From: Pseudomonadota bacterium
GTDB lineage: Bacteria; Pseudomonadota; Gammaproteobacteria; Burkholderiales; JABEVD01
Reading direction: 5' to 3'
Assembly: GCA_021835845.1 (NCBI GenBank)
Contig: JAKBJU010000001.1
Coordinates: 12,908 to 76,907, forward strand
DNA length: 64,000 nt
A model generated the notes under the pieces. It was not told the origin of the DNA. It worked only from the letters and a program-made list of their open reading frames with translations, and did not search any database. Shown here one piece after another: positions 7,637-26,318 of the stretch. The position numbers and the translations under genes were made by a program. Position 1 is the stretch's first letter. Each line of letters starts with the position of its first letter.

Positions 7637-7683
7637 TGGAGGCGGGGGTCGGAATCGAACCGGCGTCCACGGCTTTGCAGGCC
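7637..7683 (-). repeat. att direct repeat: displaced 3' 47 nt of tRNA-Cys
   Basis: 47/47 identical by eye to 26245-26291 (CCA end to anticodon stem). Lacks the tRNA 5' half, so it is not a gene. Confidence 0.85.
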
Positions 7684-7731: not shown

Positions 7732-7750
7732 TTGGGTGATTCTTGGGTGA
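7732..7750 (+). promoter_or_regulatory. Two TTGGGTGA direct repeats with 11-bp phasing: putative integrase arm sites
   Basis: TTGGGTGA at 7732-7739 and 7743-7750. The same octamer with the same phasing recurs at the other island end (26154-26172). Confidence 0.5.
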
Positions 7751-7766
7751 ACCAACAGGGGACATT

Positions 7767-8747
7767 ATGGCACAAATAGAGCGGCGCGGTGATTTGCAAT
7801 GGCGGGCCAGAATCAAGAAAAAGGGCTTTCCCGAACAGTCAAAAACCTTCTTCACGAAAAAGGATGCAGAGGACTGGTCCAAGATCATAGAATCCGAAAT
7901 GATCCGAGGAACGTTCATTGCCCGGACGGAATCGGAAAAAGTTACCTTCGGCGATCTAGTAGATCGGTATCTACGAGAAGTTACCCCGTCCAAGAAAAAC
8001 TGGAAGAGCGAAACCGAGATCATGGGCAAGATCAAGGAGAGATTCGGACAGCACGCTCTCGTTGCGATCCAGTCTAAAGAAATTGCCGAATACCGCGATG
8101 AGCTTTTAGAAAAGAGGGCAGCCTCCACGGTCTGTCATTACCTGAATGCAATTTCTGTCGTGATAGATACCGCACTCAAAGAATGGGGCTACGTCCTCCC
8201 AGCAAATCCAGTTCGCAATGTGCGCCGTCCTTCCCAACCAACGGGAAGAGATAGGCGGCTTTCGACTGAAGAGGAAACAGCACTCATTGAAGAATGCAGG
8301 AAGTCCGGCAACGTCTGGCTTGTGCCTGTCGTGGTTCTTGCTACTGAAACGGCGATGCGGCAAGGAGAGATTTTCAAGCTGTCGTGGGAGCATGTGAACC
8401 TGAAAAGGCAAATAGCGCATATCCCGGAAACCAAGAACGGCGAAGCTCGAACAATCCCACTTTCGACTCGCGCTGTCGCGGCGCTGGACGCTCTCCCACG
8501 CTCTATTGATGGCCGGGTTATCCAGGCGCGTCAGGATGCTTTGAGAAAGTGTTTCGAACGGGCCGTGGTCAGGGCTGGTATCAAGGATCTACGATTCCAT
8601 GATCTCAGGCACGAGGCGACATCCAGATTGTTCGAAAAAGGACTAAACCCGATGGAAGCTGCGAGCGTAACCGGACATAAAACGCTTGCCATGCTGAAAC
8701 GCTACACGCATTTGAAGGCTGAGGAACTGGCGAAGAAGCTTGGATAG
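7767..8747 (+). CDS. int: Tyrosine-type site-specific integrase
   Basis: 326 aa from ATG 7767 with AGGGGA upstream. The ORF track begins at TTG 7743. Catalytic-domain pattern ATETAMRQGEI...FHDLRHEATSRL...GHKTLAMLKRYTH (R..HxxR..Y). Confidence 0.9.
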   Translation: MAQIERRGDLQWRARIKKKGFPEQSKTFFTKKDAEDWSKIIESEMIRGTFIARTESEKVTFGDLVDRYLREVTPSKKNWKSETEIMGKIKERFGQHALVAIQSKEIAEYRDELLEKRAASTVCHYLNAISVVIDTALKEWGYVLPANPVRNVRRPSQPTGRDRRLSTEEETALIEECRKSGNVWLVPVVVLATETAMRQGEIFKLSWEHVNLKRQIAHIPETKNGEARTIPLSTRAVAALDALPRSIDGRVIQARQDALRKCFERAVVRAGIKDLRFHDLRHEATSRLFEKGLNPMEAASVTGHKTLAMLKRYTHLKAEELAKKLG

Positions 8748-10077: not shown

Positions 10078-10088
10078 GTCTGGTCTCC

Positions 10089-11152: not shown

Positions 11153-12016
11153 TCATGCTGCGGCTTGCTGCTGCTCCTGAAATGCCATGATGTAGCCGTG
11201 CGCCTTGCTGGCCTGACTTGCTGCGGTGAAAATCGCCCGCTTGTCGTTCTTCAGTACCTTGAGCCACGAATCGATATAGCTTGCATGGTTGGGAATCTGC
11301 GAAGCGATAAACCCGGTTTCAGCATTGAGAAACGCGCTTCCAAGCTCCGCTACCAGTTCCTCGAATGCGTAAGCCTCGCTTCCGAATCTGCCGGAAAAGT
11401 CGCGGTTAAGGCGGTGCTTCGCTCCCGTCCAGTGGGTGAGTTCGTGGAGCGCCACGCTGTAGAAATCCTTGGCGCTGGCAAATCTGGCACGCTCCGGCAT
11501 GGTGATTTCGTCGGTCGAAGGACGATAAAAAGCCTTCTGTCCGGTCTCGTTGATCTTCGCGCCTGACGCCTTCAGGATCGCCTCGGCGGCCTCTACCTGC
11601 TCCCATTCGGTTCTGACGGTTGCGGCTGCTGGCCTCTCGATGCCGTCGATCTGGTCGAGGTTGAAAACCCAAAAAGGTGAGGCCATCGGGATTTCTTTCT
11701 CTTCTTCGGTTTCCTTGTCCAGGATTTCGAGCATCTTGAAATAAACGCAAAGCTCGCCTTTCTCGCCCTTCCTGACCTGTCCGCCAAGCTCTGCGGCTTG
11801 CTTGTAGGTCAACCATGCGTTGCTGCTGTAGCCGTTCGCTCTCGCTGCGCTCCAGAGAATCAGGGTGTTTATGCCGCGATAGGCTGCGCGGGTCTTATGG
11901 TTGATCGGCATGCCTCCTGCCGCGTCCTGCGTCCAGGTGATGCCCTCGCCCGTCGCGTTGGCCTCGATTGCGGCAATGATCGAATCGGTGATTTGCTGGT
12001 AGAGATCGGTTTTCAT
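11153..12016 (-). CDS. ardC: ArdC-like antirestriction protein (ssDNA-binding N-domain plus zincin metalloprotease)
   Basis: 287 aa. N-terminal DUF1738/ArdC pattern (YRGINTLILW, WLTYKQA..LGGQVRKGEKG) and C-terminal HELTHWTG zinc motif. Confidence 0.9.
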   Translation of the reverse strand: MKTDLYQQITDSIIAAIEANATGEGITWTQDAAGGMPINHKTRAAYRGINTLILWSAARANGYSSNAWLTYKQAAELGGQVRKGEKGELCVYFKMLEILDKETEEEKEIPMASPFWVFNLDQIDGIERPAAATVRTEWEQVEAAEAILKASGAKINETGQKAFYRPSTDEITMPERARFASAKDFYSVALHELTHWTGAKHRLNRDFSGRFGSEAYAFEELVAELGSAFLNAETGFIASQIPNHASYIDSWLKVLKNDKRAIFTAASQASKAHGYIMAFQEQQQAAA

Positions 12017-12144: not shown

Positions 12145-12329
12145 CTTGCTTGTGATGCCCACGATCAGTTCCCCCTTCGCAAATCGACAGGGGGCTGATC
12201 CAGTGGGTATGCAATGACGGGAAGCTGGTGAGCTCGAAGCGGGTAAACGGCGTGATTTTGCTTTCTTGAGGCTGACCCCATGCGCGGCCCGAATGCCAGC
12301 CTTGCGCTGGCGTGATGGGCGCGGGAAGC

Positions 12330-12629: not shown

Positions 12630-12877
12630 CAGTCTAGCTCCTTGAATTTTTTCCAGAGAATGCAGGTTTTCTCGGTTGCCCAGTCCGCGAATCTCGAATT
12701 GAGCGCGTCGAGAAAGCTCCTACGCTGTTGCTGTTGTGCTGGAGCGGGGAGAGAAACCGTCCCGGTCCCGCCGGTTGCAAGCGCCTTGAGGTAGGCGCTC
12801 GCGGTCAAGCCTGCTGCGAGCGCCCGAGATTCGAAAGCCTGGGCCTCGTCGTCCGTGAAATCGATTGAGAGTTTCAT
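12629..12877 (-). CDS. Ribbon-helix-helix-like protein (MobC/CopG-like fold)
   Basis: 82 aa. MKLSIDFTDDEAQAFESRALAAGLTASAYLKALA fits strand-helix-helix. ATGA coupling with the upstream gene. Confidence 0.5.
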   Translation of the reverse strand: MKLSIDFTDDEAQAFESRALAAGLTASAYLKALATGGTGTVSLPAPAQQQQRRSFLDALNSRFADWATEKTCILWKKFKELD

Positions 12878-13647
12878 TGCGCCGCTCCGGGGTAGCTCAA
12901 TTCTTGCTGGGTGGTTTGCTGCTCCGCTGCCTTCGCCTTCAAGTAAGCCTGCATTGCAGCCGCTTTGTCTTCGGTGTTCTGCGCCTGCCCCTGCGCCTGC
13001 GCTTTCGATTGAGCGACAAGCTGATTGAGCGCTCCGTTCTCATCGATCAGCATTGCCGACATTTGCGCATTCTGGCTTGCAAGCGTCTGGAAGCCTTGGA
13101 CGTTGCCCGAAATGTTCGGGATTTGCTGTGCAAGTGCCGTGACGGCCTGCGACTTGTTTTGCAGGTCGGCGAGGTTCGCTTGAGTTGTTTTAAGCTGGTC
13201 GCTGTACACCTTGTTTCCGGCTGCGGCCTGCTGCGCGACATAGCCGTAGTATTGGTTGGGCGTCATGCCCAGCCGGGTCATCGTCGCAGCGTCCACGGAA
13301 ATGTTCTGCGTGACATTGTTCGCTGCGGCTTTCAGGTTGAGCAAGTCCTGGGCCATCGCGGCGTAACCCTGCACCCCGCCCATGCCTGCGCCCGCCTTCG
13401 CCATTGCGCCAAATTGCTGCACGTTTGCCGCCGCCCCCTGAAGGTTCTGCACCTGCGCCTGATACTGCTGCAGCTGAGTAATGTACTGCTGCAACTGGGT
13501 CGCCTGGATGCCTGCCTGCTGCGCGACGGATGCGACAAGCTCCGCATTGTTGGCAAGCTGGGTAATTTCGGTCGCCCCGCCCGTGACCCCACCCCCGGCG
13601 AATGCGGGAGCGGAAACGAGAAGAAGAAGAGAAAGGATTTTTTGCAT
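12874..13647 (-). CDS. Secreted Q-rich coiled-coil protein, TrbJ/VirB5-like
   Basis: 257 aa. Signal peptide MQKILSLLLLVSAPAFA, then ITQLANNAELVASVAQQAGIQATQLQQYITQLQQYQAQVQNL, which resembles the TrbJ/VirB5 N-terminal pattern. Family not verified. Confidence 0.5.
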   Translation of the reverse strand: MQKILSLLLLVSAPAFAGGGVTGGATEITQLANNAELVASVAQQAGIQATQLQQYITQLQQYQAQVQNLQGAAANVQQFGAMAKAGAGMGGVQGYAAMAQDLLNLKAAANNVTQNISVDAATMTRLGMTPNQYYGYVAQQAAAGNKVYSDQLKTTQANLADLQNKSQAVTALAQQIPNISGNVQGFQTLASQNAQMSAMLIDENGALNQLVAQSKAQAQGQAQNTEDKAAAMQAYLKAKAAEQQTTQQELSYPGAAQ

Positions 13648-13702
13648 GATGACTCCTTTTGGAAGGGTGATGGGGACAGTCTAAACCGCCCCCGGAAATC
13701 CA

Positions 13703-14659
13703 TTATTTGCCGGGCTTGCCGGGCATTTGCAGCTGCATCACGGTATTGGTCGGGTCGGGCGTGAGCGATTGCGAGAGTCCTCCGAAAAGTCGTCCGGTGA
13801 TTTGCGTCGCGTTCAAAATCAGGCCGAGGATCGCGAGGCTCAAGATCGACACGAAAATCATGAGGACCGTTGTCGGCATTGTCGATGAGCCGGTCTGGCC
13901 TGCGATTACGCCGATTTCGGTCACGATGTCGAGACAAAGCATGATGAGCACGCCGAGAACCGGTTTGTAAAAAATTGCGCCGACGAAAAAACCGATCCAG
14001 TTGCCCATCATCGACCGCAACTTGCCGATGATCGAGAGCGCAAGAATGATCGGGCCGAAGCAGAGGGCCAAATATATGACCACGTTTGCGATGAGCAGAC
14101 TGGCCCAGCATGCGGCCATAGCGCCGACGAGAATTGCGACTGCTGACATCATCACGACAAATGAACTAATCGAGTCAACAGCGGTAAGCAAGCTGCTTCC
14201 GAGGATCGCGAAGATAGAAGACGCATTCGAAGCGTTCGAAGCGTTCTGCGCGATGGACTGCGAAGACGGGAAAATCGAAGTCGAAATGGCTTTGACTGCG
14301 GGCGAAAAGTTCGCAATGACGAGATGTCCAAGTCCTTCCGACGTTTGCCCTCCGGTCGCGGCTTTAACGAGGTCGTCTGCGACAGACATAGCCGGATCGA
14401 CCGCGAGGGTTTGCCAGTGAAGAATGATTGCAGCAATCGCAATCGACGGGATGACGGCTTCGAAAAGCCGCTTCATCGCGCCTTTTCCGTCGTTTGAAAG
14501 CAAGATGACAAGGGCCGCGACAATCTCGAAGATGACCGCCGCGACAAAGACTTTTTCGGTCGTGTCCGAGGTTGCGAAGTTCATTGCAAAGGCTTTACCG
14601 TGCGTGTCAACGGTCGAGAAAACTTGATCGAGGACGGTGAAATCGAGGTACATGGTCAT
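13703..14659 (-). CDS. Polytopic membrane protein, TrbL/VirB6-like
   Basis: 318 aa from ATG 14659 (GAAGGAG RBS, ATGA overlap with the upstream gene). Five to six TM segments and a hydrophilic tail. Adjacent to the VirB5-like gene. Family not verified. Confidence 0.5.
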   Translation of the reverse strand: MTMYLDFTVLDQVFSTVDTHGKAFAMNFATSDTTEKVFVAAVIFEIVAALVILLSNDGKGAMKRLFEAVIPSIAIAAIILHWQTLAVDPAMSVADDLVKAATGGQTSEGLGHLVIANFSPAVKAISTSIFPSSQSIAQNASNASNASSIFAILGSSLLTAVDSISSFVVMMSAVAILVGAMAACWASLLIANVVIYLALCFGPIILALSIIGKLRSMMGNWIGFFVGAIFYKPVLGVLIMLCLDIVTEIGVIAGQTGSSTMPTTVLMIFVSILSLAILGLILNATQITGRLFGGLSQSLTPDPTNTVMQLQMPGKPGK

Positions 14660-14973
14660 GCTCCTTCGGTCGAGATGTGGACGCGGTGGTGATGCGCGAC
14701 ATGGTGCATGTGCGCCGCTGCATGCTGCGGTTTTGCTGGCGGCTGGGGGTGAACCGGGCCGTGGGTCAGCATTGCAAGTTCCATGAAGATGCCGAAAACG
14801 CCGACTGCTGCGAAGAGCTTGAGGTAGGGCCGGAAAATTATGTAGATGACGCCAGCGCCTGCGCAAATTGCGAGCGAGAGGGTGAAGCCTGCCCATGGGG
14901 CGCAGCCGAAGAAGAGGACCAAAAGTGCGGCAATCTTGACGTAAGTCGTTTTCTTGAATTCAGGCATTTTCAT
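14656..14973 (-). CDS. Small membrane protein with a His-rich C-terminal tail
   Basis: 105 aa. Three hydrophobic segments. Tail reads PQHAAAHMHHVAHHHRVH. Confidence 0.5.
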   Translation of the reverse strand: MKMPEFKKTTYVKIAALLVLFFGCAPWAGFTLSLAICAGAGVIYIIFRPYLKLFAAVGVFGIFMELAMLTHGPVHPQPPAKPQHAAAHMHHVAHHHRVHISTEGA

Positions 14974-15243
14974 GTTGTTTCTCCATTTTCGACCCGGCTT
15001 CCCGCCGTATGAATCGCGTTTTGTTTCGGCAAGGGAGGAAAGGCAAGAAATTCGACCGAAGCCGCAGCCCGAAGGGACCGGGTGACGGCGAACCCGAAGG
15101 GGGCGAAGCCTTACTTGCTTTTCCGAGCGCCGAAACGATCTTTGCGATTCGGGGCGGGATGCAGGGCGAAGGAGAATTGAAAATCCAAATTCAAAGACGC
15201 CCTGGTGCCGCTTGATTCATCTTCCCATGCGCCTGGGATACCA

Positions 15244-15471
15244 CTATTCGTGGGTGTCGAGCACGCGGAAAGCGTCTTCTGTGAATTCGGCTAAAGCTGC
15301 ATCGCCTCGGGTCAGCGCGTGAATCTGGATTGCTGCCAGCACGGCCTCAAGGTCAAGCCCGGCATCTTGTCGCAAAACCCGGATTGCAGAGTGCAGCGGA
15401 TTTGCGGGAACCCCAAGCTCACGAAGTCGTGCATGTCCGAGGTCTTGAGATGAAGTCAGAGTTGTTTCCAT
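15244..15471 (-). CDS. Hypothetical protein
   Basis: 75-aa ORF with a weak AGGA RBS. No recognised domain. Confidence 0.4.
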   Translation of the reverse strand: METTLTSSQDLGHARLRELGVPANPLHSAIRVLRQDAGLDLEAVLAAIQIHALTRGDAALAEFTEDAFRVLDTHE

Positions 15472-15480
15472 GATTTTTCC

Positions 15481-15507
15481 TTTCGAAAACCCCGCCCGAG
15501 GGCGGGG
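15481..15507 (-). terminator. Rho-independent terminator after the lipoprotein gene
   Basis: Minus strand reads CCCCGCC-ctcg-GGCGGGG followed by TTTTCG, 13 nt after the stop at 15520. Confidence 0.65.
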
Positions 15508-15519
15508 GGTGGGTGGGTT

Positions 15520-16326
15520 TCAGGGTAAAACGATGGTGTCGCCGACGCGGGGGGCCGTCGGCGTGACAACCGAGCCAGTGCCGCCCGCAAAGCGCTCGTA
15601 ATCGACCCGATAGCCGTCCGTCACGTCGCGGGTGACGTTGTGACACGTCGTGGTGGGCGTGTGCTGGATGTGGTCGCCGGTGAGCGCCCCGACAATAGCG
15701 CCGAGGGCTGCGGCTGCGACTCGTCCGTTTCCGTTGCCGATTTGAGACCCGGCCATGGCTCCGGCTGCGCCGCCCAGCCCGGCCCCCAGGTACTGGGGAT
15801 TTGTCGAGTTCTGCTGCTCGCAAACCTGCTGACTGACCTGGTGCGTGATGGGCACGACATCGATGACGCGGGCTGCATGCTGCCGAGCCTCGTTTGCGTT
15901 CGCGATCACGTCGGGCGGAAGCTGCTCGTCCTGCCGTGCCTCATGACGTGGACGGTGAGCTTCGCGGTGCTTGTGCTCCTTCGGCTTTTCCTCTGCCGGT
16001 GCTGCTGCCGGGGCGGAAGCTGCGGCCTGCCCTGCCCTGGCTTGCTGCAAAAGCTCGGAAAACTGCTCTTGCGTGAGCGTTACCTGGCCGGGACCCGATG
16101 CGACGGGGGCGGAGGCAGGAGCCGAAGCCGGGACCACGGCGGAAGCTGCAACGGGAGCCGAAACAGGCGCGGGAGCCGCCGGGACCACGGCGGAAGCCGG
16201 GGAAAGCGTGAGCGCCGAAGCCGGAGTCTTGGCCGGGGCGGTGGAGCCGCCGCCGAAGATTCCGGGCATGTCGCAACCGGCGAGGCCGATAGTCGCGAGA
16301 GCGACGATGAGAGCGGTTTTCTTCAT
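15520..16326 (-). CDS. Lipoprotein with Ala/Pro-rich linker and glycine-zipper (17-kDa antigen-like) domain
   Basis: 268 aa from ATG 16326. Lipobox LAGC. GAGLGGAAGAMAGSQIGNGNGRVAAAALGAIVGALTG glycine zipper. Confidence 0.7.
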   Translation of the reverse strand: MKKTALIVALATIGLAGCDMPGIFGGGSTAPAKTPASALTLSPASAVVPAAPAPVSAPVAASAVVPASAPASAPVASGPGQVTLTQEQFSELLQQARAGQAAASAPAAAPAEEKPKEHKHREAHRPRHEARQDEQLPPDVIANANEARQHAARVIDVVPITHQVSQQVCEQQNSTNPQYLGAGLGGAAGAMAGSQIGNGNGRVAAAALGAIVGALTGDHIQHTPTTTCHNVTRDVTDGYRVDYERFAGGTGSVVTPTAPRVGDTIVLP

Positions 16327-16327
16327 G

Positions 16328-16834
16328 TTACTGTCCTTTCGTGGTTTGAGGGATGATGAGGATCGCGCAAGCCGGGTCGCCAATCAGGTGTTGCGAGAGC
16401 TGCGCCCGCGCTTGAGCCAGCGGTTGAATGCATTGGCTTTTGACCGTAAAGCTCTTGTTGACGAGTGGCGCGGTGATGAGCGCCTGGCCGCCTGCTTGTT
16501 GCTTGATGAAGACCGGAGAAAAAGCTGTCTGCTGGTCCGTCGCTATGATCTCGTGGCAGCCGTATTTCTGCGCTGCCGCTTTGATCGCCGCATTCGTCGC
16601 TTCGCGGCTCGTCATGGTGCAGCCGAGGAGCACGGTTTCATGTGCCTGCGCGGGCTTCGCGCCTGCGGCGAGTGCGGCGGGAAAAGTGACCTCGACCGTC
16701 TTTCCGTCGCGGTTCGGTATGATGATCACGGGTGCGACGGCTGTCGCTTCTGTGCCGCCGGTCTGCGGGCTCTGCGCGCAACCTGCGACGATTCCCGCAA
16801 GTGCGAGTACGGCGATGGGTGTGAATTGTTTCAT
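16328..16834 (-). CDS. Lipoprotein, hypothetical
   Basis: 168 aa from ATG 16834 (AAGGAG RBS). Lipobox IVAGC. Confidence 0.65.
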   Translation of the reverse strand: MKQFTPIAVLALAGIVAGCAQSPQTGGTEATAVAPVIIIPNRDGKTVEVTFPAALAAGAKPAQAHETVLLGCTMTSREATNAAIKAAAQKYGCHEIIATDQQTAFSPVFIKQQAGGQALITAPLVNKSFTVKSQCIQPLAQARAQLSQHLIGDPACAILIIPQTTKGQ

Positions 16835-16887
16835 GTCTGCTCCTTTTTCGATGTGACAATCCAGTGTCTCACTGGTCCGAAAAACGA

Positions 16888-17661
16888 CTATTCGCGGTCG
16901 TCGGCGAAAAACCAGACGCCCCGGAAGCATTCGCGGTTTCGAATGCGGCGGTCAGCGAAGACTTCGCGAAGCGCTTCCGACTTGTGAACGATGCATTCGC
17001 CGTGGACCGAATCGTATAAACCGTTTACAGTGTTTTGGCCGTCGTAATAATTGCCAGCGGGCGAGTAGTCGGAAAGGCTCCAGGGCATTACTGCTGCGCC
17101 GAAACGCGGATTTTTCGGGTCGCGCACGTAAAGGCTGGGACAAACCCCGCGCTTCTCCCGGTCGCGTCCGTCGCTGAAATCGAAGAGCGACGGGATGAAA
17201 CAGATCGGAGAAACCGAGAAAGTGTTTTCTGTCGCAACCGAATCAGCGGCCACAATCTTTCCGGGGTGAGCGCCGTCCGGAAAAAACTCCATTGGTTCTA
17301 TATGGATTGCGAGTCGAGCCGTGGGCGGTGGCGGCGTCAAGCTGCGCGGCTGAGCTTGTGCCTGAATCCGCAACTCCGTAGCTTGATGCTGGTCGGCGAA
17401 GAGTCCGCCGGTCGCCGGTGTTGCGGCTGCTGGCTGAGCGGAAGCGGGAGCGTCGGGGTCTTGAAGGCCAAAAAAGAAGTAGTAGCCAAGTTTCTTTTCC
17501 CAGTGCGGTGCGGGCCCGAAGAAAATTCCGGTGGTGCTGTTGCCCTGGTCGCTGGTCGTCGCGCTCTTCGAAGAGAAAAGCGAGGATGCGCCGAAGGCGA
17601 TGACCGCGACGGCAATTCCGAGCGCTGCGAAACTCAGAACGGTTTGTGTTTTCTTGTCCAT
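16888..17661 (-). CDS. Exported or membrane-anchored hypothetical protein
   Basis: 257 aa from ATG 17661. N-terminal signal anchor (VLSFAALGIAVAVIAFGASSLF). C-terminal Cys-containing domain of unknown family. Confidence 0.55.
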   Translation of the reverse strand: MDKKTQTVLSFAALGIAVAVIAFGASSLFSSKSATTSDQGNSTTGIFFGPAPHWEKKLGYYFFFGLQDPDAPASAQPAAATPATGGLFADQHQATELRIQAQAQPRSLTPPPPTARLAIHIEPMEFFPDGAHPGKIVAADSVATENTFSVSPICFIPSLFDFSDGRDREKRGVCPSLYVRDPKNPRFGAAVMPWSLSDYSPAGNYYDGQNTVNGLYDSVHGECIVHKSEALREVFADRRIRNRECFRGVWFFADDRE

Positions 17662-17766
17662 GTCCTTTTCCTTTCCGGGGGCAGCGCCCCCGCTGTTGAG
17701 AGATGGGGGGCAGCGCCCCCCCCGTCTTGCCGCGACGCTCAATGCGTCCCGGACTCCGGGAAACTG

Positions 17767-18051
17767 TCAGCGTCCAATGCCTTTAATCGCTCCGAAAACA
17801 ACTTCTGCAAGCCATTTCGCGAAGCGAAAGAGCCACTTCGCGGGCAAAATCAGGCCGTCAAGGCCGCCCTGCCATGCGCGGTGCCACTCGCCATGACGGA
17901 TGCCGGAAACCAGAAAGCCGCCGACGAATGTGAGGCCCGAGGCCATTGCGAGGATTGCGAAGCCCTGGGGCGTGAAGGCAATCTGGATCGCGCCGAGGAA
18001 TACGCGGATTGCGATGATGAAGCCGAAAAGCATCAAGCCGAGGCGAATCAT
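17767..18051 (-). CDS. Small membrane protein
   Basis: 94 aa from ATG 18051. ATGA overlap with the upstream 64-aa gene. Three hydrophobic segments. Confidence 0.45.
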   Translation of the reverse strand: MIRLGLMLFGFIIAIRVFLGAIQIAFTPQGFAILAMASGLTFVGGFLVSGIRHGEWHRAWQGGLDGLILPAKWLFRFAKWLAEVVFGAIKGIGR

Positions 18052-18242
18052 TTGAGCTGCCCTCCCGTTTTTTCGATTGCTGATTTGAGGAATTCGAGCG
18101 CATGGTCTGCCGAAATCGGCAGGGTTCCGCCGGTTTTCGTCCAGATGAAGATCATCAAATAGATGCCACCGATTCCGCAGGAAAGCGCGAACACGATGCG
18201 CCAGATGAAGGGCATGGAAGATTGTTGAGTTTGAGATGCCAT
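18048..18242 (-). CDS. Small membrane protein
   Basis: 64 aa. One TM (FIWRIVFALSCGIGGIYLMIFIW). First gene after the Replic_Relax-like gene. Confidence 0.45.
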   Translation of the reverse strand: MASQTQQSSMPFIWRIVFALSCGIGGIYLMIFIWTKTGGTLPISADHALEFLKSAIEKTGGQLK

Positions 18243-18245
18243 TTG

Positions 18246-19019
18246 TTAAGCTCCTTTCTTCTGTGCGAATTTCGAATAAGAGAAAAAGGCGAATCGAGCG
18301 CGATGAGAATCCGTCACCTTGACGTTTTCGCCTTCGAACCGGATGGTTTCGACCCGCGCAAAAGCTCGCTCTACAAGCTTTTCGAGGCCGTCGGGGCAAA
18401 CGTAAGCGACAAAAGCGTAGCGCCCTGCTTTAATCGATTTGAGATGCGCGAGCAGCACAGATTCATACCGCCGGGGGGTCTTGATGGTCCTCTCGATCTC
18501 GATTGCGACTCGGTCGCCCTTCGGGCTTGTGGCGATGAAATCGGGGATTTTTTCCGAGTCCTTGCCTTTCCCTTTCGCTGCCGTTCGCTCCCTGGGCGAT
18601 TCCTGCATTTTCTGCAATCGCTCGGGCACGAATGCGGTCCAGCCTGCGGCTTCGGCCTTGATCCGCATGCGCTGGCCGTCCAGTTTGTGAGCGAGAAATG
18701 CCGGGGACGTGCGCCCGAGTTCGTGGAAAGGCATGTCCCATTTGTCGATGAGCGCGAGGCCATGCGGGGTGATGCCGTAGATTTTCGATTTCCGGCCCGC
18801 GTTCTCTATTTCTTCCGACTTGAGCGCACCGTCGCGCTCCAGGCCGCCGACTGTGGATTGTGCGGCCCGTCGGCTGCATTGCAGCAGCAATGCGGCGATT
18901 TCAACGGTCGAGAAGACTTCGCCAGATGCGAGGAAATCAAGCAGTATGCGGCGTTTCGCTTCTGCGCGAGCCTGCTTTTCAGCGTAAGTCATGGCCGGGA
19001 GTCGTTCTGTTTTTTCCAT
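18246..19019 (-). CDS. wHTH plus PD-(D/E)xK-like protein, replication-relaxation (Replic_Relax)-like
   Basis: 257 aa from ATG 19019 (GGAG 9 nt upstream). The ORF could extend to 19040. N-terminal wHTH (ILLDFLASGEVFSTVEIAALL...ERDGAL), H-containing middle (FLAHKLDGQ), PDFIATSPKGDRVAIEIERT core. Confidence 0.6.
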   Translation of the reverse strand: MEKTERLPAMTYAEKQARAEAKRRILLDFLASGEVFSTVEIAALLLQCSRRAAQSTVGGLERDGALKSEEIENAGRKSKIYGITPHGLALIDKWDMPFHELGRTSPAFLAHKLDGQRMRIKAEAAGWTAFVPERLQKMQESPRERTAAKGKGKDSEKIPDFIATSPKGDRVAIEIERTIKTPRRYESVLLAHLKSIKAGRYAFVAYVCPDGLEKLVERAFARVETIRFEGENVKVTDSHRARFAFFSYSKFAQKKGA

Positions 19020-19091
19020 TTCTTCATCTCCAAAAAACACAATTCAATTTTCCCATGCGTTCGAAAAACCATTGTTTGCCGAGCCGCCTTT

Positions 19092-19165
19092 CCCGCGAAG
19101 CGGGTTAGTCCGGCGCGTGAGCGCCTGGGGGTCTCGCGAAGCGAGTTCGGGGCTCGCGAAGCGAG
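19092..19165 (+). repeat. Cluster of four mini-hairpins (three GCGAAGC-core, one GTGA-loop)
   Basis: cccGCGAAGCggg 19092-19104, GGCGCgtgaGCGCC 19112-19125, ctcGCGAAGCgag 19133-19145 and again at 19153-19165. Confidence 0.8.
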
Positions 19166-19212
19166 TAAATTGATGGTCCGGCGAAATGGGGCGGGTCTCC
19201 CGCCCCTGGTGG

Positions 19213-21024
19213 TCAATCGAAGCTGATTGTCTCGGGTTGGTCGAGGTCGAGGCCGTCGGTCTCGACTATGCGCGAAGTCGCGGGCGGCAAGTCGAACGGT
19301 GCTTTCTCGGTGCCCGAATCGAGCGCGACGGACTCGGAAGCGCTCTTCAAGCTCGCCCCTTCAACCTCGCGAATTGCGATTGCTTCTGGCGACTTCGCGA
19401 CTCTCAGCGGTCGAATCGAAACGAATTTCGGAAGTCCGCTTCCATACAGAACCGCTACCGATGCGGGCAGATTCAACAGCATGTTTTCATCAATGAAATA
19501 GCGCTCGGCTTGTCGAATCGACCTGCGAGCATCGACGGTTTCAGAGAGAGCCAGATTCCGCTCAACCGTCCGGCTCTCGTCGTCCACGAGGATCTTCCCG
19601 GACATGCTTGCAAGCCATTCGGCTGTGACCGGGGATTTAACCTGGTAGCAGAGCTTGACGCGGCAATTCTCAACGACAGCATCAACGACAGCATCAGGGT
19701 TGAGATCCTTGGTGCAGTCTTTCAAGTCGCCCAAGCTCTGGTGAGCAAGGATCAGGTGGACACCTTTGTCGCGAGCGGCCCCCAGTCCTTCAAGCGCTGG
19801 GCGGGAAAGGTGGTATTTCACTTCGTCAAGGACAATACAGATTTTGCGAAGTTCTCCGGCCATGCGGTCGCGCCGTTCGGCAAGCTGCAACAAGCGCACA
19901 AGCAAGATGCGCTGCGCGGTCTTCACGATGTCGTTTCGCATCGATCCGACGATGTAGACACATCCGCCGTTTTCGATAACTTCGGCGAGCGATACGCCCC
20001 CAGCGGTCGCGTTGATCGACGGTGTTTCGGCCATTTCGCGCAGCTTGCCGTAGAACTTCTCGGCTTCGCCTACCTGGTCTTTTCGCGCCTCGAAAACCTC
20101 AGCGATGGTTAGATTTTCAGCGGCCATTTGCCGGGCGGTCGCAAGTGCTTCACGACGATCTGCAATGCCGTAGAAGTCGCTGGCGTCGCCTTTCTCGATC
20201 AAGCTGAACCCGGCTTGAAACAACTCGAAAGCTTCATCAGCCGTTGCGCCTTCGAATGGGTTAAACTGCGCCCCGTTCGGGCGGTTGAGGTTGATGTAGT
20301 AATACGGCTTGCCGGTTCGCTGTGCTGCGGCATGCATGACCGATGGAGCCCACTCGTCGTTTTTCGGGTCGCAGAAAAAAACTGCTTCTCCGCGCTCAAG
20401 GAATTGAGACGCCATGACGCCCAGGCTCACGCCTTTACCCGCTCCGGTCGTGCCGACCACCTGAACGTGAGGCGCGGAAGTGCCGCCGCCGAATTCGATG
20501 TAGATAGGTTTTTTCTTCTCGTCCAGGCCGAGAAAAACGCCCTTGCTCTTATCAAGAAATTTCACCGGATCGAACGCGGCGGCGGAATCAGGAAGGTGCT
20601 TTTCGATCTCGCGAACGTCGGTCTTTCTGTTCCGCTCGCGCTCACTCGTAACCGTAGCCTTGCCTTTGAGCTTGTCGATTGCTTGGACGCCATCGCGCAG
20701 AAGAAAGATAGCGCCCGCGATTCCCGCTGCTGCGGAAATAATGAAAATGCCTATATCCAGCCAGCCGGGAAACAAAGTCGGAACGGTCCCGTCATCCCGA
20801 GGATAAAAAGTTACTTTCGAGAGCGTTGGGATAACAAAAAGGATTGCGAGCGCTGCCCATGCTGGCAGCGAAAACAGAGAGAAAAGCCGGGATAAAAAAC
20901 CTTCTTTGTTCTGCGCTTTTCGGTTATGCGAGAGGATTAAAAAGCCGAAACCAAAACCGAAAAAGCGGAGAGCGTGGAATGCCAAAAGCAGGCAGCCGAG
21001 CACGTAGAAATTCAGAACTTGCAT
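19213..21024 (-). CDS. Type IV secretion coupling protein (TraD/TraG/VirD4 family)
   Basis: 603 aa from ATG 21024 (AGGAGG RBS). N-terminal TM helices, Walker A VVGTTGAGKG, Walker B CIVLDEV, AHQSLGDLKD. The upstream part of the 668-aa ORF is rejected. Confidence 0.85.
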   Translation of the reverse strand: MQVLNFYVLGCLLLAFHALRFFGFGFGFLILSHNRKAQNKEGFLSRLFSLFSLPAWAALAILFVIPTLSKVTFYPRDDGTVPTLFPGWLDIGIFIISAAAGIAGAIFLLRDGVQAIDKLKGKATVTSERERNRKTDVREIEKHLPDSAAAFDPVKFLDKSKGVFLGLDEKKKPIYIEFGGGTSAPHVQVVGTTGAGKGVSLGVMASQFLERGEAVFFCDPKNDEWAPSVMHAAAQRTGKPYYYINLNRPNGAQFNPFEGATADEAFELFQAGFSLIEKGDASDFYGIADRREALATARQMAAENLTIAEVFEARKDQVGEAEKFYGKLREMAETPSINATAGGVSLAEVIENGGCVYIVGSMRNDIVKTAQRILLVRLLQLAERRDRMAGELRKICIVLDEVKYHLSRPALEGLGAARDKGVHLILAHQSLGDLKDCTKDLNPDAVVDAVVENCRVKLCYQVKSPVTAEWLASMSGKILVDDESRTVERNLALSETVDARRSIRQAERYFIDENMLLNLPASVAVLYGSGLPKFVSIRPLRVAKSPEAIAIREVEGASLKSASESVALDSGTEKAPFDLPPATSRIVETDGLDLDQPETISFD

Positions 21025-21905
21025 TGCTTCCTCCTGAAAATGAAATTGCTTCTCTAGGATCGCATGGGAAAGAAATACCACTAAATTGAGCGGTAAGCAT
21101 GGGTTAAAGCGCACCTTCGATTCCGTAGATGCGCTCGAAATCGTGTGGCTTGGCTGTGACGGCAAGGCGCAGCCGCGCAGCCCGAAGGGCGAAGGCAAGA
21201 CGGACTCATCGTCGCGCAAGTCGCGGTGATTTTTCGCGACTGAAGGGGGACCGGCGAAGCCGGGGCAAGACGCAGACCGAAGGTCGTCGCGTCGAGCCTC
21301 CGAGGATCAGCGAAGCGGTCCGAGGATCGGGGGGAGCCATGAGTCCCGAAGGGACCGAAGCCAGCCAGCGTCGAGTAAGGACGGCTTCATCGTCCGCACC
21401 GAGACCTGGATGGGCATGGGGGGCGAAGCCCCGGCGACCCGAGCGCGAAGCGCCAAGGGTCCAAGGTGCACTCTCCGAGCCTCGCTTTTTTGCGAGCGCA
21501 GCGAACAAAAAAGAAGAGAAGAGAGTGCTCCGCAGGACCCGCAGCCCTCCGGGGTCTTTGAGCGAAGCGAAAAAGACTCTGGAGGGGCGGGGTCGAGCGG
21601 TGGAAGGACCGGCGAAGCCGGGACTGGAAGCGCTCGACCCCGCCCGTCCAGCGGACGGGTCGGGTCGCCCGCTTTTGACGTGCCCCTGGGACTGCGACAG
21701 CAGGCCAGGAAGAGCCGCCGCGTCCAGCGGCGAAGCGATTCCGGCAGGGGATGCCTTTGACTTTGCTTGTGTTTTTGACTTTCCCAAAGTCAAGCCCGAA
21801 ACACTTAAGCGCATCATGAATATCAGAGTGCGCTAATGGTCGAAGCTGAAATCACACATGAAATGTATCGATTTCGGTGAGACGAAGAAGCCCCGCGAGA
21901 AGCCC

Positions 21906-21953
21906 CCACGAGAAGCCCCATAGTCCCGGCGCTTCTTCCGGGGCTTCTCGTGG
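21906..21953. repeat. 14-bp inverted repeat (CCACGAGAAGCCCC / GGGGCTTCTCGTGG) with a 20-nt spacer
   Basis: Read directly. Preceded by two more direct copies of GA(A/G)AAGCCCC at 21884-21906. Confidence 0.8.
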
Positions 21954-21976
21954 AGCTACTCGACACGAAAAACGCC

Positions 21977-22004
21977 AAAAAGAAAGCCCGGAAAAATCCG
22001 GGCT
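21977..22004 (-). terminator. Rho-independent terminator of the 22032-22223 gene
   Basis: Minus strand reads AGCCCGG-attttt-CCGGGCT followed by TTCTTTTT, 28 nt after the stop. Confidence 0.7.
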
Positions 22005-22031
22005 TAGAGGCGGGGAGAGTGCGGGGAAAAT

Positions 22032-22223
22032 TTAGGCGGGGCGGCTGGGATTTTCGCGAGCGATTTCAGCGAAAGCTGCGAGTAAAACATCGTCGGGGAG
22101 ATGCAGGATTTTTGCTTTTTGAGCGAGAGCGAAAATCGATTCTTTCCGAGCTTCGTCTTTCTGCGCTTGCGCGATTTGCTTTTCGAGATCGTCGCGTTTT
22201 TTCAGAAGAGTTTCGAGCTTCAT
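22032..22223 (-). CDS. Small coiled-coil protein, RSF1010 MobC / Ti TraD-like architecture
   Basis: 63 aa with AAAGGAAAG RBS. KKRDDLEKQIAQAQKDEARKESIFALAQKAKILHLPDDVLLAAFAEI parallels the coiled-coil plus LxAAxxxxL layout of RSF1010 MobC. Weak call. Confidence 0.4.
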   Translation of the reverse strand: MKLETLLKKRDDLEKQIAQAQKDEARKESIFALAQKAKILHLPDDVLLAAFAEIARENPSRPA

Positions 22224-22256
22224 GGTTCTTTCCTTTCGTCGTGAAAATTGAAAAAA

Positions 22257-22535
22257 TCAGCGGGCGTTTTTCCAGCCGCTGGCTTCAGCCGCATGAAAAT
22301 CCTGGATCGATTTCGCGGTGGGTGAGAGGTAAGCTCCGAGCAGCATTCCAGCCCCGAAAATCGATGCGACGATCAGCACGCGGTTAAAGATGACCAGCGC
22401 CTTGAAAAGCCGAAGCCGATTCCTCATCCTGCGGAGAGTGGCCGCTGAAATCGGCTTGCCGTCGGCGTCGAGATGAGGGAAAAGCTCTTCATGGAGAAAA
22501 GACGATGTGCCTTTTCGAAAGTAACGTTCATGCAT
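22257..22535 (-). CDS. Membrane protein, hypothetical
   Basis: 92-aa ORF with one TM (ALVIFNRVLIVASIFGAGMLLGAYL). Overlaps the upstream gene by 8 nt. Confidence 0.4.
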   Translation of the reverse strand: MHERYFRKGTSSFLHEELFPHLDADGKPISAATLRRMRNRLRLFKALVIFNRVLIVASIFGAGMLLGAYLSPTAKSIQDFHAAEASGWKNAR

Positions 22536-22752
22536 TGCGTGGCTCCTTTCCGTCGATGATGCGTTCTTGAAAAATTCGGGAAATCATGTCGCGCTGCTTC
22601 TCCGAAAGATGAATTCCGGTGTCGGGGTCTTCGCCGTATTTCTCAAGCCGCTGCGCCTGGTCGGCGATGTAGGATTTCTCCCATGCGCTCAGCTTGTCCG
22701 TCTGAGCTGAGAGCGTGCGGATTTTGTCGAAAATTGAAACTGGTTCGGTCAT
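22528..22752 (-). CDS. Hypothetical protein
   Basis: 74 aa from ATG 22752 (GGAG upstream). Helical and acidic. Confidence 0.4.
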   Translation of the reverse strand: MTEPVSIFDKIRTLSAQTDKLSAWEKSYIADQAQRLEKYGEDPDTGIHLSEKQRDMISRIFQERIIDGKEPRNA

Positions 22753-22894
22753 GATGTGGCTCCGGTGGTTGAACATAGAATCATTCTCGGGTAAATTTTC
22801 CAAACCACTAAATTGAAACTTTTCTGGTTGATGCGATGGGCTCCGTGCCAACCAAACTTTCAACTCATGAGCCTAAAAATTGGAGGGAAAAAAC

Positions 22895-23092
22895 ATGCGT
22901 TTAGTCTTGGGGATTCTGCTTCCGTGGCTTCAGTTTTTCACTATCGGTCGTCCCATCGCGGGAATAATATGCCTGATTCTTCAACTCACGCTCATCGGCT
23001 GGATCCCTGCCGCGATTTGGTCCATCTACGCCCTGAGCCAGTACAAGACAGACAAGAAAATTGAAAAGGCATTGGGTCAAGCAAAAGCCTGA
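22895..23092 (+). CDS. Small two-TM membrane protein
   Basis: 65 aa from ATG 22895 with GGAGGG 8 nt upstream. LIGWIPAAIWSIYAL motif. One of only four plus-strand genes in the island (with int, 8821-9285 and 25440-26132). Confidence 0.5.
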   Translation: MRLVLGILLPWLQFFTIGRPIAGIICLILQLTLIGWIPAAIWSIYALSQYKTDKKIEKALGQAKA

Positions 23093-23096
23093 TTTT

Positions 23097-23169
23097 GGGG
23101 CGGCGATAACCCTACGCCGACTTGTCGGGCGAGGGGGCGGCGATAACCCTATGCCGCCTGCCTCGCCCT
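23097..23169 (+). repeat. Composite palindromic module R1 (downstream flank of the primase gene)
   Basis: GGCGGCGATAACCCTACGCCG then GGGCGAGG-G-GGCGGC-gataaccctat-GCCGCC-TG-CCTCGCCC. About 85% identical by eye to 24098-24169 in the same orientation. Confidence 0.8.
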
Positions 23170-23187
23170 CATGCGCATGTTGAGTTT

Positions 23188-24066
23188 TCAGGATGGAAAA
23201 AGGCGCTCTTTTGCGGCGGCCAAAGTCCGTCGAGCATACTTTTCTGCGGACCTCCCTTTTCGAGTCGCTGAAATTGCCAGCAGCCTCACAATTTCTTCGT
23301 CCTCCACCCCTTCTTTCACCTTCAAAATCGTCCATTGGAAGTCCACTTCTGACTGCGTTTTTCCGGGGCGTCTGTTAGATGTCACGGGGGGCAGCGGCTT
23401 GCTGCCGCCGACTGGAACGGCAGATTTTTTCGGTCGCGGATTGTTTGCGGGCGTCGTGACGGCTGCGGGCTTTATCGTCTCAACATCGAGCGGCTTTCCC
23501 TTTGGCCGCTTCAAAACGTTCACCCAACAGCCGCCCCGCTTGTGATTTTTGAATCCGGGGATTCGTCCTGGCTGAATTCCGCTCGTCGCGGCTCGATCTG
23601 CGCCGACTTTCTGTGCGAGAATCGCTTGCAGCCGCTGCCGCTCGCGTCCGTCGATGCGTTGATTTGTTATGAGCCAGATCTGGCAATTGTTCGGCGAAGT
23701 CTCGATAACAAAGCATCGATTGAAGTCAGCGATTTCAAAGGCCGTCTTCCTTGGCACGTCGTCAAGAAAAAGGTATCTGTACGATGCGATGCTGTCCGCG
23801 CTCGAAGCTGCGGGTCGAAAATAGACGTTCCCGCCGAGCTTGTTTTCTTTGCGAAGGTCGGCCAGCAAATCCTCAACGTATTTCATTCCGTACCGTTCGC
23901 GGGTACGCGCCATTGTCTGCGGCGGGTCTGTGAGTCTGCCACCATCAAACACGCGCCATGCTGACTTGTCCGACGGGTCGCGGGAAGAGAAAAGATTGAA
24001 TGCCTGGCAACCGACTTCTTCAGCAAGTTCGATCATGAATCTCATTTGAATTTCTTCGATGCTCAT
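23188..24066 (-). CDS. repB: RepB'-type DNA primase (RSF1010 RepB' family)
   Basis: 292 aa. Motif-by-motif match to RSF1010 RepB': GGNVYFRPA / GNDVYIRPA, YLFLDDV / LVLVDDL, VIETSPNNCQIW / VVETSPKNYQAW, GRIPGFKNHK / GRLAGFTNRK, C-terminal ...RKGRSAEKY / ...SRGRSAEEI. Confidence 0.85.
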   Translation of the reverse strand: MSIEEIQMRFMIELAEEVGCQAFNLFSSRDPSDKSAWRVFDGGRLTDPPQTMARTRERYGMKYVEDLLADLRKENKLGGNVYFRPAASSADSIASYRYLFLDDVPRKTAFEIADFNRCFVIETSPNNCQIWLITNQRIDGRERQRLQAILAQKVGADRAATSGIQPGRIPGFKNHKRGGCWVNVLKRPKGKPLDVETIKPAAVTTPANNPRPKKSAVPVGGSKPLPPVTSNRRPGKTQSEVDFQWTILKVKEGVEDEEIVRLLAISATRKGRSAEKYARRTLAAAKERLFPS

Positions 24067-24097
24067 TCCCTGCACTCCAAAAAACCCTACCCCCTAT

Positions 24098-24169
24098 GGG
24101 CGGCGATACCCCTATGCCGCCCGTGACGGGCGAGGGGGCGGGGTGACCCTATCCCGCCTGCCTCGCCCT
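24098..24169 (+). repeat. Composite palindromic module R2 (upstream flank of the primase gene)
   Basis: GGCGGCGATACCCCTATGCCGCC then GGGCGAGG-G-GGCGGGgtgaccctatCCCGCC-TG-CCTCGCCC. Direct repeat of 23097-23169. Confidence 0.8.
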
Positions 24170-24312
24170 ACACGCTCTGAGAGCACTGAGGCGTTGAGAC
24201 TTGCAGCCCCGCCCTAGGGGCCTGACTGTGATAAAAAGCATCACAGATTTTGGTCGTTGATTTTAGATGCATTAAAATTCAACGCATCTATTCGCCACCC
24301 CCCCCAAAACCC

Positions 24313-24663
24313 TCAATCTAGCAAAGGGTTTTTCCGGGGTGAACGGAAAAAGGTCCGGGTATGGCTCCAATTCCCACGTCCTTTCCCGCCGAGGTTCCTC
24401 CTCTCCAGCCAACCTTTTTCTACAAGCTCCTTCGTGTACTTGATCCAGCTGCTTTCTTCGAAGCCCGCGAGCCTCTTCAGAATCTTCTTTGTGGGCTTCT
24501 GCGGCAGGGAAAACGCATAGATGAGGATTGACCTCGCGGGTCCCGATAAAGCGGTTTCAGGGTCCAAAATTTTGAGCGGGACGAGTGCTGCGGTGTCGGT
24601 CGATTCCTCAACGTCATATTCTTCCTCAGGCCCGTCTTCAGGTGAACGAGTGTTCTTGGCCAT
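24313..24663 (-). CDS. Winged-helix-like DNA-binding protein, hypothetical
   Basis: 116 aa from ATG 24663. C-terminal half (ILKRLAGFEESSWIKYTKELVEKGWLERR) looks like a wHTH. Confidence 0.5.
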   Translation of the reverse strand: MAKNTRSPEDGPEEEYDVEESTDTAALVPLKILDPETALSGPARSILIYAFSLPQKPTKKILKRLAGFEESSWIKYTKELVEKGWLERRNLGGKGRGNWSHTRTFFRSPRKNPLLD

Positions 24664-24664
24664 G

Positions 24665-25045
24665 TCACACCTCGTCATCCCCGAACAGATCCCCGGTCCG
24701 ATCCGCTGCTTCCTTCTCTGCTTTCTTCCGTCGCCCCATGCGCGGCCCCGTCTTCGCGCCGTCCTCGACTCGACTTTCTAGCCGAGCGATCTCTCCCGAA
24801 ATCGCTTCGATCACGTCTTCGAGACCGAGGAAGAAACTCCATTCCGCGCCACCCAGCGCGAATTTCCAAGCGATTGAGATGAGGTCCTGTATTTCTTCGC
24901 TCTTGAGACTTGCTAAGATCGCATCGTGGGTTGAGCGCTTGTGCTGGTTGCGGAGCACTTTAAAGTGCTCAGAAAGGGCTTTGAGGGCAATATCGCCCGC
25001 CTCCTCGGGCGAAACCGAGCGGGTGAACAGAACGTCCTGACTCAT
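24665..25045 (-). CDS. Hypothetical protein
   Basis: 126-aa ORF coupled to its neighbours. No recognised domain. Confidence 0.5.
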   Translation of the reverse strand: MSQDVLFTRSVSPEEAGDIALKALSEHFKVLRNQHKRSTHDAILASLKSEEIQDLISIAWKFALGGAEWSFFLGLEDVIEAISGEIARLESRVEDGAKTGPRMGRRKKAEKEAADRTGDLFGDDEV

Positions 25046-25317: not shown

Positions 25318-25369
25318 ACCGCGCCTTTAAATTAAAGTGAACACGGTTCAATGCTATTCTTTCCTTGCA

Positions 25370-26244: not shown

Positions 26245-26318
26245 TGGAGGCGGGGGTCGGAATCGAACCGGCGTCCACGGCTTTGCAGGCCGCTGCATAA
26301 CCACTCTGCCACCCCGCC
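26245..26318 (-). tRNA. tRNA-Cys (GCA)
   Basis: 74 nt: GGCGGGGTGGCAGAGTGGTTATGCAGCGGCCTGCAAAGCCGTGGACGCCGGTTCGATTCCGACCCCCGCCTCCA. Anticodon loop CUGCAAA, T-loop GGTTCGATTCC, CCA end. Confidence 0.93.

Follow-up and report, generated by a model that had tools for sequence, protein, structure and literature searches.

What kind of protein is encoded immediately downstream of the gene for a type IV coupling protein (T4CP) in the 64,000 nucleotides of contig JAKBJU010000001.1 (Pseudomonadota bacterium, assembly GCA_021835845.1) that we analysed as a whole and call the window, and could it be the enzyme that processes the DNA of the mobile element around it? An earlier interpretation of the letters without database searches, hereinafter the sequence-only reading, had seen in this gene a candidate atypical relaxase. 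We arrive at a more conventional assignment: with a probability of about 85%, judging from sequence comparison, the gene product is a conjugative relaxase of the MOBC class that would form, together with a T4CP of the MobB type, the mobilization module of an 18.65-kb integrative mobilizable element (IME) at a tRNA-Cys gene. The assignment to MOBC follows from the full-length match of the protein to the NCBIfam model NF041423, its alignment with TraX, the annotation of homologous plasmid genes as mobC, and the presence of a MobB-type T4CP in the same order.

The gene, denoted mobC in what follows, is an open reading frame (ORF) at 18246..19040 of the minus strand, which yields 264 amino acids (aa) when counted from GTG 19040. 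Translation from ATG 19019, with GGAG 8 nt upstream, gives a 257-aa protein with the same sequence as the database entry P0121, and translation from ATG 18992, the start called by NCBI, gives the 248-aa sequence of entry P0001. The start is likely to be ATG 19019 and is taken there; residue numbers, however, refer to the 248-aa version, with 9 to be added for the 257-aa one. Positions 6-239 of the 240 in NF041423 ('MobC family replication-relaxation protein') align with residues 18-257 of the 264-aa ORF (E 8.7e-53). A large protein database holds 143 homologues, some of which carry the name MobC, the closest non-identical one being about 50% identical; the named sources include Gallionellaceae, Rhodocyclaceae and Thiomonas. 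Among 1.84 billion representatives at 50% identity, 384 reach E<=1e-3, of which 251 also reach E<=1e-10. A tblastn search of the plasmid database PLSDB retrieved 1219 records, mostly from Klebsiella, Escherichia and Vibrio, in which the matched gene is mostly annotated mobC (915 records are typed as mobilizable and 219 as conjugative); identity to annotated plasmid mobC genes reaches 36% (E 2e-32) and lies at 31-36% for the enterobacterial MobC proteins. The mobC region of CloDF13 aligns with the window protein through KVPD...VAFEVERTVK/PQRY. The RefSeq record of CloDF13 appears to be frameshifted in mobB/mobC, with fragmented annotation and a MobC match that switches frame; for protein comparisons it was replaced by the CloDF13-like Klebsiella plasmid pKP2509-5, whose MobC is 31% identical to the window protein. 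MOB-suite types both pKP2509-5 and pTEF1, a pAD1-type plasmid, as MOBC. On these comparisons, the predicted mobC product is a divergent branch of the MOBC family. The MobC-like region also occurs at the C-terminus of longer proteins, such as P0231 (816 aa; residues 609-811), P0257 (459 aa) and P0253 (375 aa), in which it may be fused to a T4CP or some other domain.

Does the protein then possess the active site that such an assignment demands? MOBC is a recognised class of relaxases related to the PD-(D/E)xK restriction endonucleases (PMC12857230, PMC6736028). In the pAD1 relaxase TraX, a restriction-enzyme-like active site has been confirmed by mutagenesis (PMC12857230, PMC6736028); members of the class share a DEE metal-binding motif, TraX resembles BamHI, and its Y181 is essential for transfer (PMC6736028). 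All these signatures have counterparts in the window protein. In an hhalign comparison with the 'replication-relaxation family protein' of pTEF1, a homologue of TraX (E 1.4e-5), D151/E165/E167/K171/Y176 fall on D152/E170/E172/K176/Y181 of TraX, so that D151, E165, E167 and K171 represent the DEE motif with its subsequent lysine and Y176 is the equivalent of the essential tyrosine. H102, K148, P150, D151, E165, E167, K171 and R175 are invariant in all 44 close homologues aligned, and Y176 is present in 39 of the 44; in a six-way alignment that spans beta-proteobacterial, Klebsiella and Enterococcus members, H102, D151, E165, E167, K171, R175, Y176, Y197 and P200 do not vary. An AlphaFold2 model built on the 44-homologue alignment has a mean predicted local distance difference test score (pLDDT) of 94 and a predicted template modelling score of 0.89. 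Residues 1-81 form a winged helix that Foldseek matches to MarR/PadR/Rv3488 structures with probability 1.00 (target-normalised TM-scores of about 0.4-0.7), in agreement with a weak PadR-type sequence match. The C-terminal domain, modelled alone at a pLDDT of 91.6, has as its top Foldseek matches in the PDB the restriction enzymes EcoT38I and EcoO109I (probability 0.97), followed by NucS/EndoMS, BamHI and OkrAI, all at weak E-values of 0.03-0.5.

Much of what the sequence-only reading had discerned is borne out by these data. The 257-264 aa ORF does lie directly downstream of the T4CP gene, at a distance of about 190 bp; the strings FLAHKLDG and PDFIATSPKGDRVAIEIERT, which it had singled out, are both found in the translation, and the histidine of the former is the invariant H102, whereas the aspartate and the ExE of the proposed core are the equally invariant D151, E165 and E167. 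The N-terminal winged helix is recovered by both AlphaFold2 and Foldseek, and the proposed restriction-endonuclease-like core agrees with the structure search, in which type II restriction endonucleases came out on top for the C-terminal domain, albeit with the weak E-values given above. The slot beside the T4CP is indeed that of a relaxase, with a MobB-type T4CP gene directly upstream, and the suggestion that the gene product is the DNA-processing enzyme of the element is well supported by the homology to MobC, the domain architecture and this position. Two statements have to be revised. There is little that is atypical about the protein, which belongs to an established and published class, and the claim that its family has no biochemically defined mechanism in Proteobacteria does not hold, since the nic site used by MobC has been mapped in CloDF13, an enterobacterial plasmid.

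The partner gene is equally informative. The T4CP has matches to the T4SS-DNA_transf, TraG-D_C and TrwB_AAD_bind domains; it is 33% identical over 445 aa to MobB of pKP2509-5 (E 2e-58) and 28.5% identical to the mobB region of the CloDF13 record. Its mechanical ORF reaches back to TTG 21219. The pairing of a MOBC relaxase with a dedicated T4CP is thus found here, and the T4CP gene is preceded by a structured block of non-coding DNA that is conserved. Among 18 related loci taken from GTDB genomes, all of them beta-proteobacterial metagenome-assembled genomes, a T4CP homologue is encoded on the same strand as MobC in 11, and an integrase gene lies about 2 kb upstream in six.

What is the element to which this module belongs? 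The sequence at 7637-7683 recurs without a mismatch, and in the same orientation, at 26245-26291, the 3' part of a tRNA-Cys(GCA) gene; this 47-bp direct repeat delimits an island that spans 7637-26291 (about 18.65 kb), with the integrase gene at the end away from the intact tRNA gene. The island is flanked by nifA, nifB and nifS at one end and by tRNA-Gly, pgsA and uvrC at the other, and the window outside it consists of housekeeping genes. Contig JAJYRC010000020.1 of GCA_021794285.1 is either the origin of the window or a sequence identical to it. An Rfam scan of the whole island returned tRNAs and a tRNA fragment at the distal attachment (att) repeat, and nothing else. There is no gene for an ATPase of VirB4 size among the island genes, and scans of other island proteins gave no match to a relaxase family, only a weak TrbJ-like one. 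The integration module consists of a tyrosine integrase and the 47-bp att repeats at tRNA-Cys, and the mobilization functions of a relaxase, a T4CP and a candidate origin of transfer (oriT) in the absence of a complete mating-pair-formation system. Because it combines att repeats, an integrase and a mob module and lacks VirB4, the element is classified, by its gene content, as an IME with a mobB-mobC module of the CloDF13 type. The island genes further include an ArdC-type gene, which is part of the transfer-support functions, a weak NikA-like ORF and a gene for a glycine-zipper lipoprotein.

If MobC is a relaxase, it requires an oriT, and we sought this site by comparison of non-coding regions. 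One sequence-conserved block in the region upstream of the T4CP gene, at about 21300-21460, is shared with related loci. Read on the minus strand, its core comprises a GGGGCTTCGCCCC hairpin (21420-21432), GCGGACGATGAAGCCGTC (21380-21397) and GGCTCCCCC (21330-21338), and the order of elements is conserved: a GGGGCTT(T/C)GCCCC hairpin (GGGGCTTYGCCCC), two small hairpins, (GC)GGCTCCCCC (GCGGCTCCCCC) and finally a longer inverted repeat. The 64-kb window has a single copy of the 9-mer GGCTCCCCC, on the minus strand. Of the 18 related loci, 13 contain it, each exactly once and without exception on the strand that encodes mobC; it lies between MobC and the T4CP in 12 of these 13, and wherever a T4CP is present it is a few hundred bp upstream of that gene. 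Large inverted repeats are found at 21585-21645 (z = -8.2) and 21904-21955 (z = -4.8). A 203-aa ORF at 21206..21817 (minus strand), which is a gene in the public annotation, has low complexity, overlaps the hairpin-rich region and is probably spurious. Taken together, the conserved block and its position, which matches that of nic in CloDF13, about 550 bp ahead of mobB, place the predicted oriT most probably in the region of about 950 bp upstream of the T4CP gene, with the core at about 21300-21460.

None of the three regions that the sequence-only reading had put forward for nicking and binding assays (19041-19212, 21884-21953 and 10365-10832) includes this best-conserved non-coding block. 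The second of them is close to the candidate oriT and may belong to the same region, although it falls outside the block itself. For the third, only repeats at the level of chance were found, with no Rfam match and no conservation across loci beyond a weak 49-nt match. The examined stretch, 10078-10832, is a 755-bp interval between small ORFs for which no gene has been called, and it was discarded as an oriT candidate on these grounds.

A number of observations weigh against the picture drawn so far and are best considered together. The score of the window protein against NF041423, 179.1 bits, is below the curated cutoff of 200. The family to which the sequence-only reading had pointed, Pfam PF13814 (Replic_Relax), has the same architecture, and a match to it does exist, yet at 19.8 bits (E 9e-4) it stays below the gathering score of 25.3. 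This model, however, recognises only seven of the 44 close homologues (best E 3.2e-6) and is simply insensitive for this branch. A sequence search of the PDB revealed no solved MOBC homologue, only weak matches to winged helix-turn-helix (wHTH) proteins. A 14-residue insertion, modelled at a pLDDT of 73-77, precedes the catalytic aspartate and is unique to the window protein in the six-way alignment. The usual gene order in the related loci is MobC followed by T4CP, the reverse of that in the window. The nic motif of CloDF13, GGGTGGTCGGG, had to be rejected as evidence for oriT: with up to two mismatches it is found 29 times in the window, against 22.8 expected, and a two-mismatch match at 21430-21440 is on the wrong strand relative to CloDF13. 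Finally, the T4CP-mobC spacer (19041-19212) is a live alternative for the location of oriT. In pAD1, oriT2 lies between the T4CP gene, traW, and traX, and pTEF1 has a gap between its T4CP and relaxase genes at the corresponding place.

Could these features be better explained if the protein were not a nicking enzyme at all? The rival that survives best, although we consider it very unlikely, is that the protein is a DNA-binding accessory factor or a repressor of the T4CP-mobC operon that acts on the spacer hairpins, while another enzyme, encoded by the island or a helper, does the nicking. Such a role would suit the MarR/PadR-like N-terminal wHTH domain, the three near-identical palindromes immediately upstream of the mobC start codon, and the presence elsewhere in the island of a gene for a weak NikA-like ribbon-helix-helix accessory protein. 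It would leave unexplained, however, why D, ExE, K and Y are invariant even in very distant members and align with the TraX residues shown by mutagenesis to be needed; no other scanned island protein matched a relaxase family, and autoregulation and nicking can coexist. Still less probable is a scenario of decay, with the module a remnant in an island that no longer moves and mobC a functionless relic of a CloDF13-like mob region. The insertion beside the active site, confined to this protein, the gene order rearranged with respect to most relatives and the NCBIfam score under the cutoff are compatible with decay, but the att repeats are identical at 47 of 47 positions, the mob, integrase and primase ORFs are all intact and have good ribosome-binding sites, every catalytic residue is kept, and an identical protein is encoded on two contigs. 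That the protein is a PD-(D/E)xK nuclease with some other role, as a replication initiator or in a defence or restriction-like function, and is linked to a T4CP by chance is hardly credible: 'replication' in the Pfam family name and the type II restriction enzymes and NucS among the structural neighbours can be cited in its favour, but the linkage to a T4CP recurs in 11 of the 18 related loci and in both CloDF13-like and pAD1-like plasmids, the island has a separate primase-type gene, and the full-length homology is to MobC.

How, then, would a MOBC relaxase mobilize the island? In the first step, the tyrosine integrase would recombine the two 47-bp att repeats and thereby excise the island; repeats and integrase are observed, and excision is deduced from them. 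MobC would then bind oriT via its N-terminal winged helix, and its PD-(D/E)xK site (D151, E165, E167 and K171, with H102 and Y176) would introduce a metal-dependent nick that is specific for site and strand. For this second step, the fold and the invariant residues come from the present analysis, whereas the chemistry is taken from the literature on TraX and on MobC of CloDF13. In the third step, by analogy with CloDF13, the MobB-type T4CP would dock the relaxosome to the type IV secretion system (T4SS) channel of a co-resident conjugative element, a helper being needed because the island has no VirB4. The fourth component, oriT, would be provided by the region upstream of the T4CP gene, with the core around GGCTCCCCC, the conservation of which is observed, as a candidate nic region. 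The fifth step is speculative: if the polarity is that of CloDF13, the plus strand would be transferred, and mini-hairpins with GAA loops on this strand might prime the RepB-like primase of the island.

This last step is suggested by an unusual distribution of small hairpins. Nine hairpins in which a perfectly paired stem of 5 bp or more closes a C-GAA-G loop are present in the window, all with GAA on the plus strand, that is, opposite the mob genes; when the whole window was shuffled 200 times, the count averaged 1.2 and never exceeded 4. Eight of the nine are located within 17700-22000 (4.3 kb), a region for which 500 shuffles gave 0.11 on average and at most 2. The array extends over 17815-21621 and includes the hairpins at 19092, 19133 and 19153 in the spacer and seven at 21180-21621 in the candidate oriT region; the plus-strand mini-hairpin sequences include GTCCCGAAGGGAC, at 21343-21355, and CCGGCGAAGCCGG. 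Related loci keep the polarity, with TTC on the mobC-coding strand (L012:13631-13971, L017:12252-12440, L005:850-992), and in L012 nine mini-hairpins form a run after the T4CP gene. Within the spacer itself, the four mini-hairpins noted by the sequence-only reading at 19092-19165 are confirmed (19092-19104, 19112-19125, 19133-19145, 19153-19165), and an additional hairpin, whose stem is 8 bp long, lies at 19188-19206. Three of these five are copies of CNCGCGAAGCGNG with the GAA loop on the plus strand (CNCGCTTCGCGNG palindromes, 19092-19165). Folded as single-stranded DNA, the spacer gives z = -3.2 for the plus strand and -3.9 for the minus strand. It may serve as an operator for MobC, an attenuator, a set of single-strand DNA signals or, as in pAD1, the position of oriT.

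By sequence, the mini-hairpins of the arrays are of the d(GCGAAGC)/d(CCGAAGG) type. The DNA mini-hairpin d(GCGAAGC) has been described as 'extraordinarily stable', with a melting temperature of 76.5 C, and a CCGAAGG mini-hairpin is part of ssiA of RSF1010, a signal to which the RepB' primase responds (PMC13037366). That the mini-hairpins of the island are single-strand priming signals for its RepB-like primase is a reasonable idea, albeit a speculative one; they could equally be binding sites of MobC or elements that act at the transcript level. The GAA form would be on the transferred strand if the polarity is as in CloDF13, whose nic and mob genes are on opposite strands. One could go further and propose that the GAA mini-hairpin arrays and the conserved GGCTCCCCC block make up a previously undescribed composite region of beta-proteobacterial islands with MOBC and T4CP genes, an oriT combined with single-strand initiation (ssi) sites, in which the relaxase would nick beside the block and the hairpins on the transferred strand would prime a RepB'-like primase in the recipient. 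This extended proposal we regard as doubtful.

Comparison with the characterised systems brings out how conventional the module is and where it departs from them. MobC of CloDF13 leaves a free 5' end (PMC6736028), and the nic site has been mapped to 5'-GGGTG/GTCGGG-3' (Nunez & de la Cruz 2001, as given in PMC5935869). The window protein shares with the CloDF13 and Klebsiella MobC proteins a two-domain organisation, a length of about 240-260 aa and the core KVPD...VAxEVERTxK..RY; as in CloDF13, MobC follows the T4CP on one strand, and the place of the CloDF13 oriT/nic, upstream of the T4CP gene, is taken by structured non-coding DNA. The differences are that CloDF13 is a ColE1-type plasmid whereas the host of the window module is a chromosomal tRNA-Cys island in a genome of beta-proteobacterial type, that the CloDF13 nic sequence is not recognisable in the window, and that the window protein alone has the 14-aa insertion before the catalytic aspartate. 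In pKP2509-5, unlike the window with its hairpin-containing gap of about 190 bp, mobB and mobC abut. With TraX of pAD1/pTEF1, the window protein shares the aligned D/E/E/K/Y residues, His102 and a gene position downstream of the T4CP on the same strand, but the identity is only about 26%, the relationship was found by profile comparison, and the TraX plasmids are Gram-positive conjugative ones whose transfer system is complete. The binding sites of TraX are five direct repeats at 70-120 bp from nic, and no covalent DNA adduct was seen for it (PMC12857230).

The closest parallels in genomic setting are found elsewhere. The order oriT-mobB-mobC is common to CloDF13, pMET1 and the integrative HPI-ECOR31 (PMC2262945). 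HPI-ECOR31, ICEKp1, pMET1 and pCRY all combine a MOBC relaxase with a MobB-type T4CP in this order, on elements that are integrative or related to integrative ones, and pMET1 also has an ArdC gene near the mob module. In contrast to the window island, however, all four possess a full VirB-type mating-pair-formation system; the island has only weak TrbL- and TrbJ-like ORFs and, lacking such a system, would depend on a helper. These ORFs are a TrbL/VirB6-like one at 13703..14653 and a TrbJ/VirB5-like one at 12874..13647 (E 5e-4), which are accompanied by a small membrane ORF (12874-14973 of the window in all, minus strand) and might represent either subunits that adapt the T4SS of the helper or remnants of a lost T4SS. 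Subunits of the former kind are reportedly encoded by SGI1.

Thus, mobC is a divergent but typical MOBC relaxase gene in a known arrangement, whereas the tRNA-Cys island is newly delimited. The finding reveals no new mechanism, and its value lies in part in annotation: the protein falls just below the curated cutoffs of the hidden Markov models and has no name in the databases. With att sites, integrase, relaxase, coupling protein, primase and ArdC, a small mobilizable island of an environmental, diazotroph-like genome is now delimited. MOBC remains the least understood class of relaxases, with no solved structure and no covalent DNA intermediate detected. A compact, confidently modelled member of this class, together with a candidate oriT core conserved in 13 loci, makes a reasonable substrate for nic-site mapping. 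What remains of modest interest is this poorly understood MOBC mechanism, the conserved candidate oriT core and the strand-biased arrays of mini-hairpins. The coordinates of the features discussed are collected in the table below.

Table. Features of the tRNA-Cys island and of related loci (coordinates are those of the window unless a locus is named)
Feature	Position	Strand	Remarks
Distal att repeat	7637..7683	.	direct repeat; 47 bp, same as 3' part of tRNA-Cys
Tyrosine integrase	7743..8747	+	Phage_integrase E 4e-28; just inside distal att repeat
ArdC-type antirestriction protein	11153..12016	-	ArdcN + MPTase-PolyVal domains
mobC, putative MOBC-family relaxase, 257 aa	18246..19019	-	N-terminal wHTH + C-terminal PD-(D/E)xK; NF041423 E 8.7e-53
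T4CP-mobC spacer, 172 bp	19041..19212	.	five hairpins
MobB-type T4CP, 603 aa	19213..21024	-	AGGAGG 6 nt upstream of start
Hairpin-rich non-coding region, about 950 bp, candidate oriT	21025..21975	.	upstream of T4CP
Intrinsic-terminator-like hairpin + T-run	21984..22005	-	just after 63-aa gene 22032..22223
RepB-type primase-domain protein	23188..24036	-	RepB_primase E 3.5e-18
tRNA-Cys(GCA) gene	26245..26318	-	3' 47 bp (26245-26291) = proximal att repeat
GGCTCCCCC / conserved block in related loci	L003:11054, L004:15693, L005:639, L006:7440, L007:11428, L008:10656		
GGCTCCCCC / conserved block, further loci	L011:2412, L012:11630, L013:11210, L014:3478, L015:5641, L016:3665		

The terminator-like hairpin listed in the table is predicted, from its stem and T-run, to end the upstream transcription unit. 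A last observation concerns another short motif, GCTGGGGC, which forms mini-hairpins on the mob-coding strand upstream of the T4CP gene in plasmids of the CloDF13 type (CloDF13 itself, locus L001, at 9603 and 9906; L023:1445 and 1749). These mini-hairpins are absent from the island in the window and were not used as evidence. They occur in beta-proteobacterial loci as well (L003:11013-11080, L006:7399-7418, L008:10615-10634, L017:11572-11591) and may mark an oriT feature common to MOBC systems or, the motif being so short, be a product of chance.

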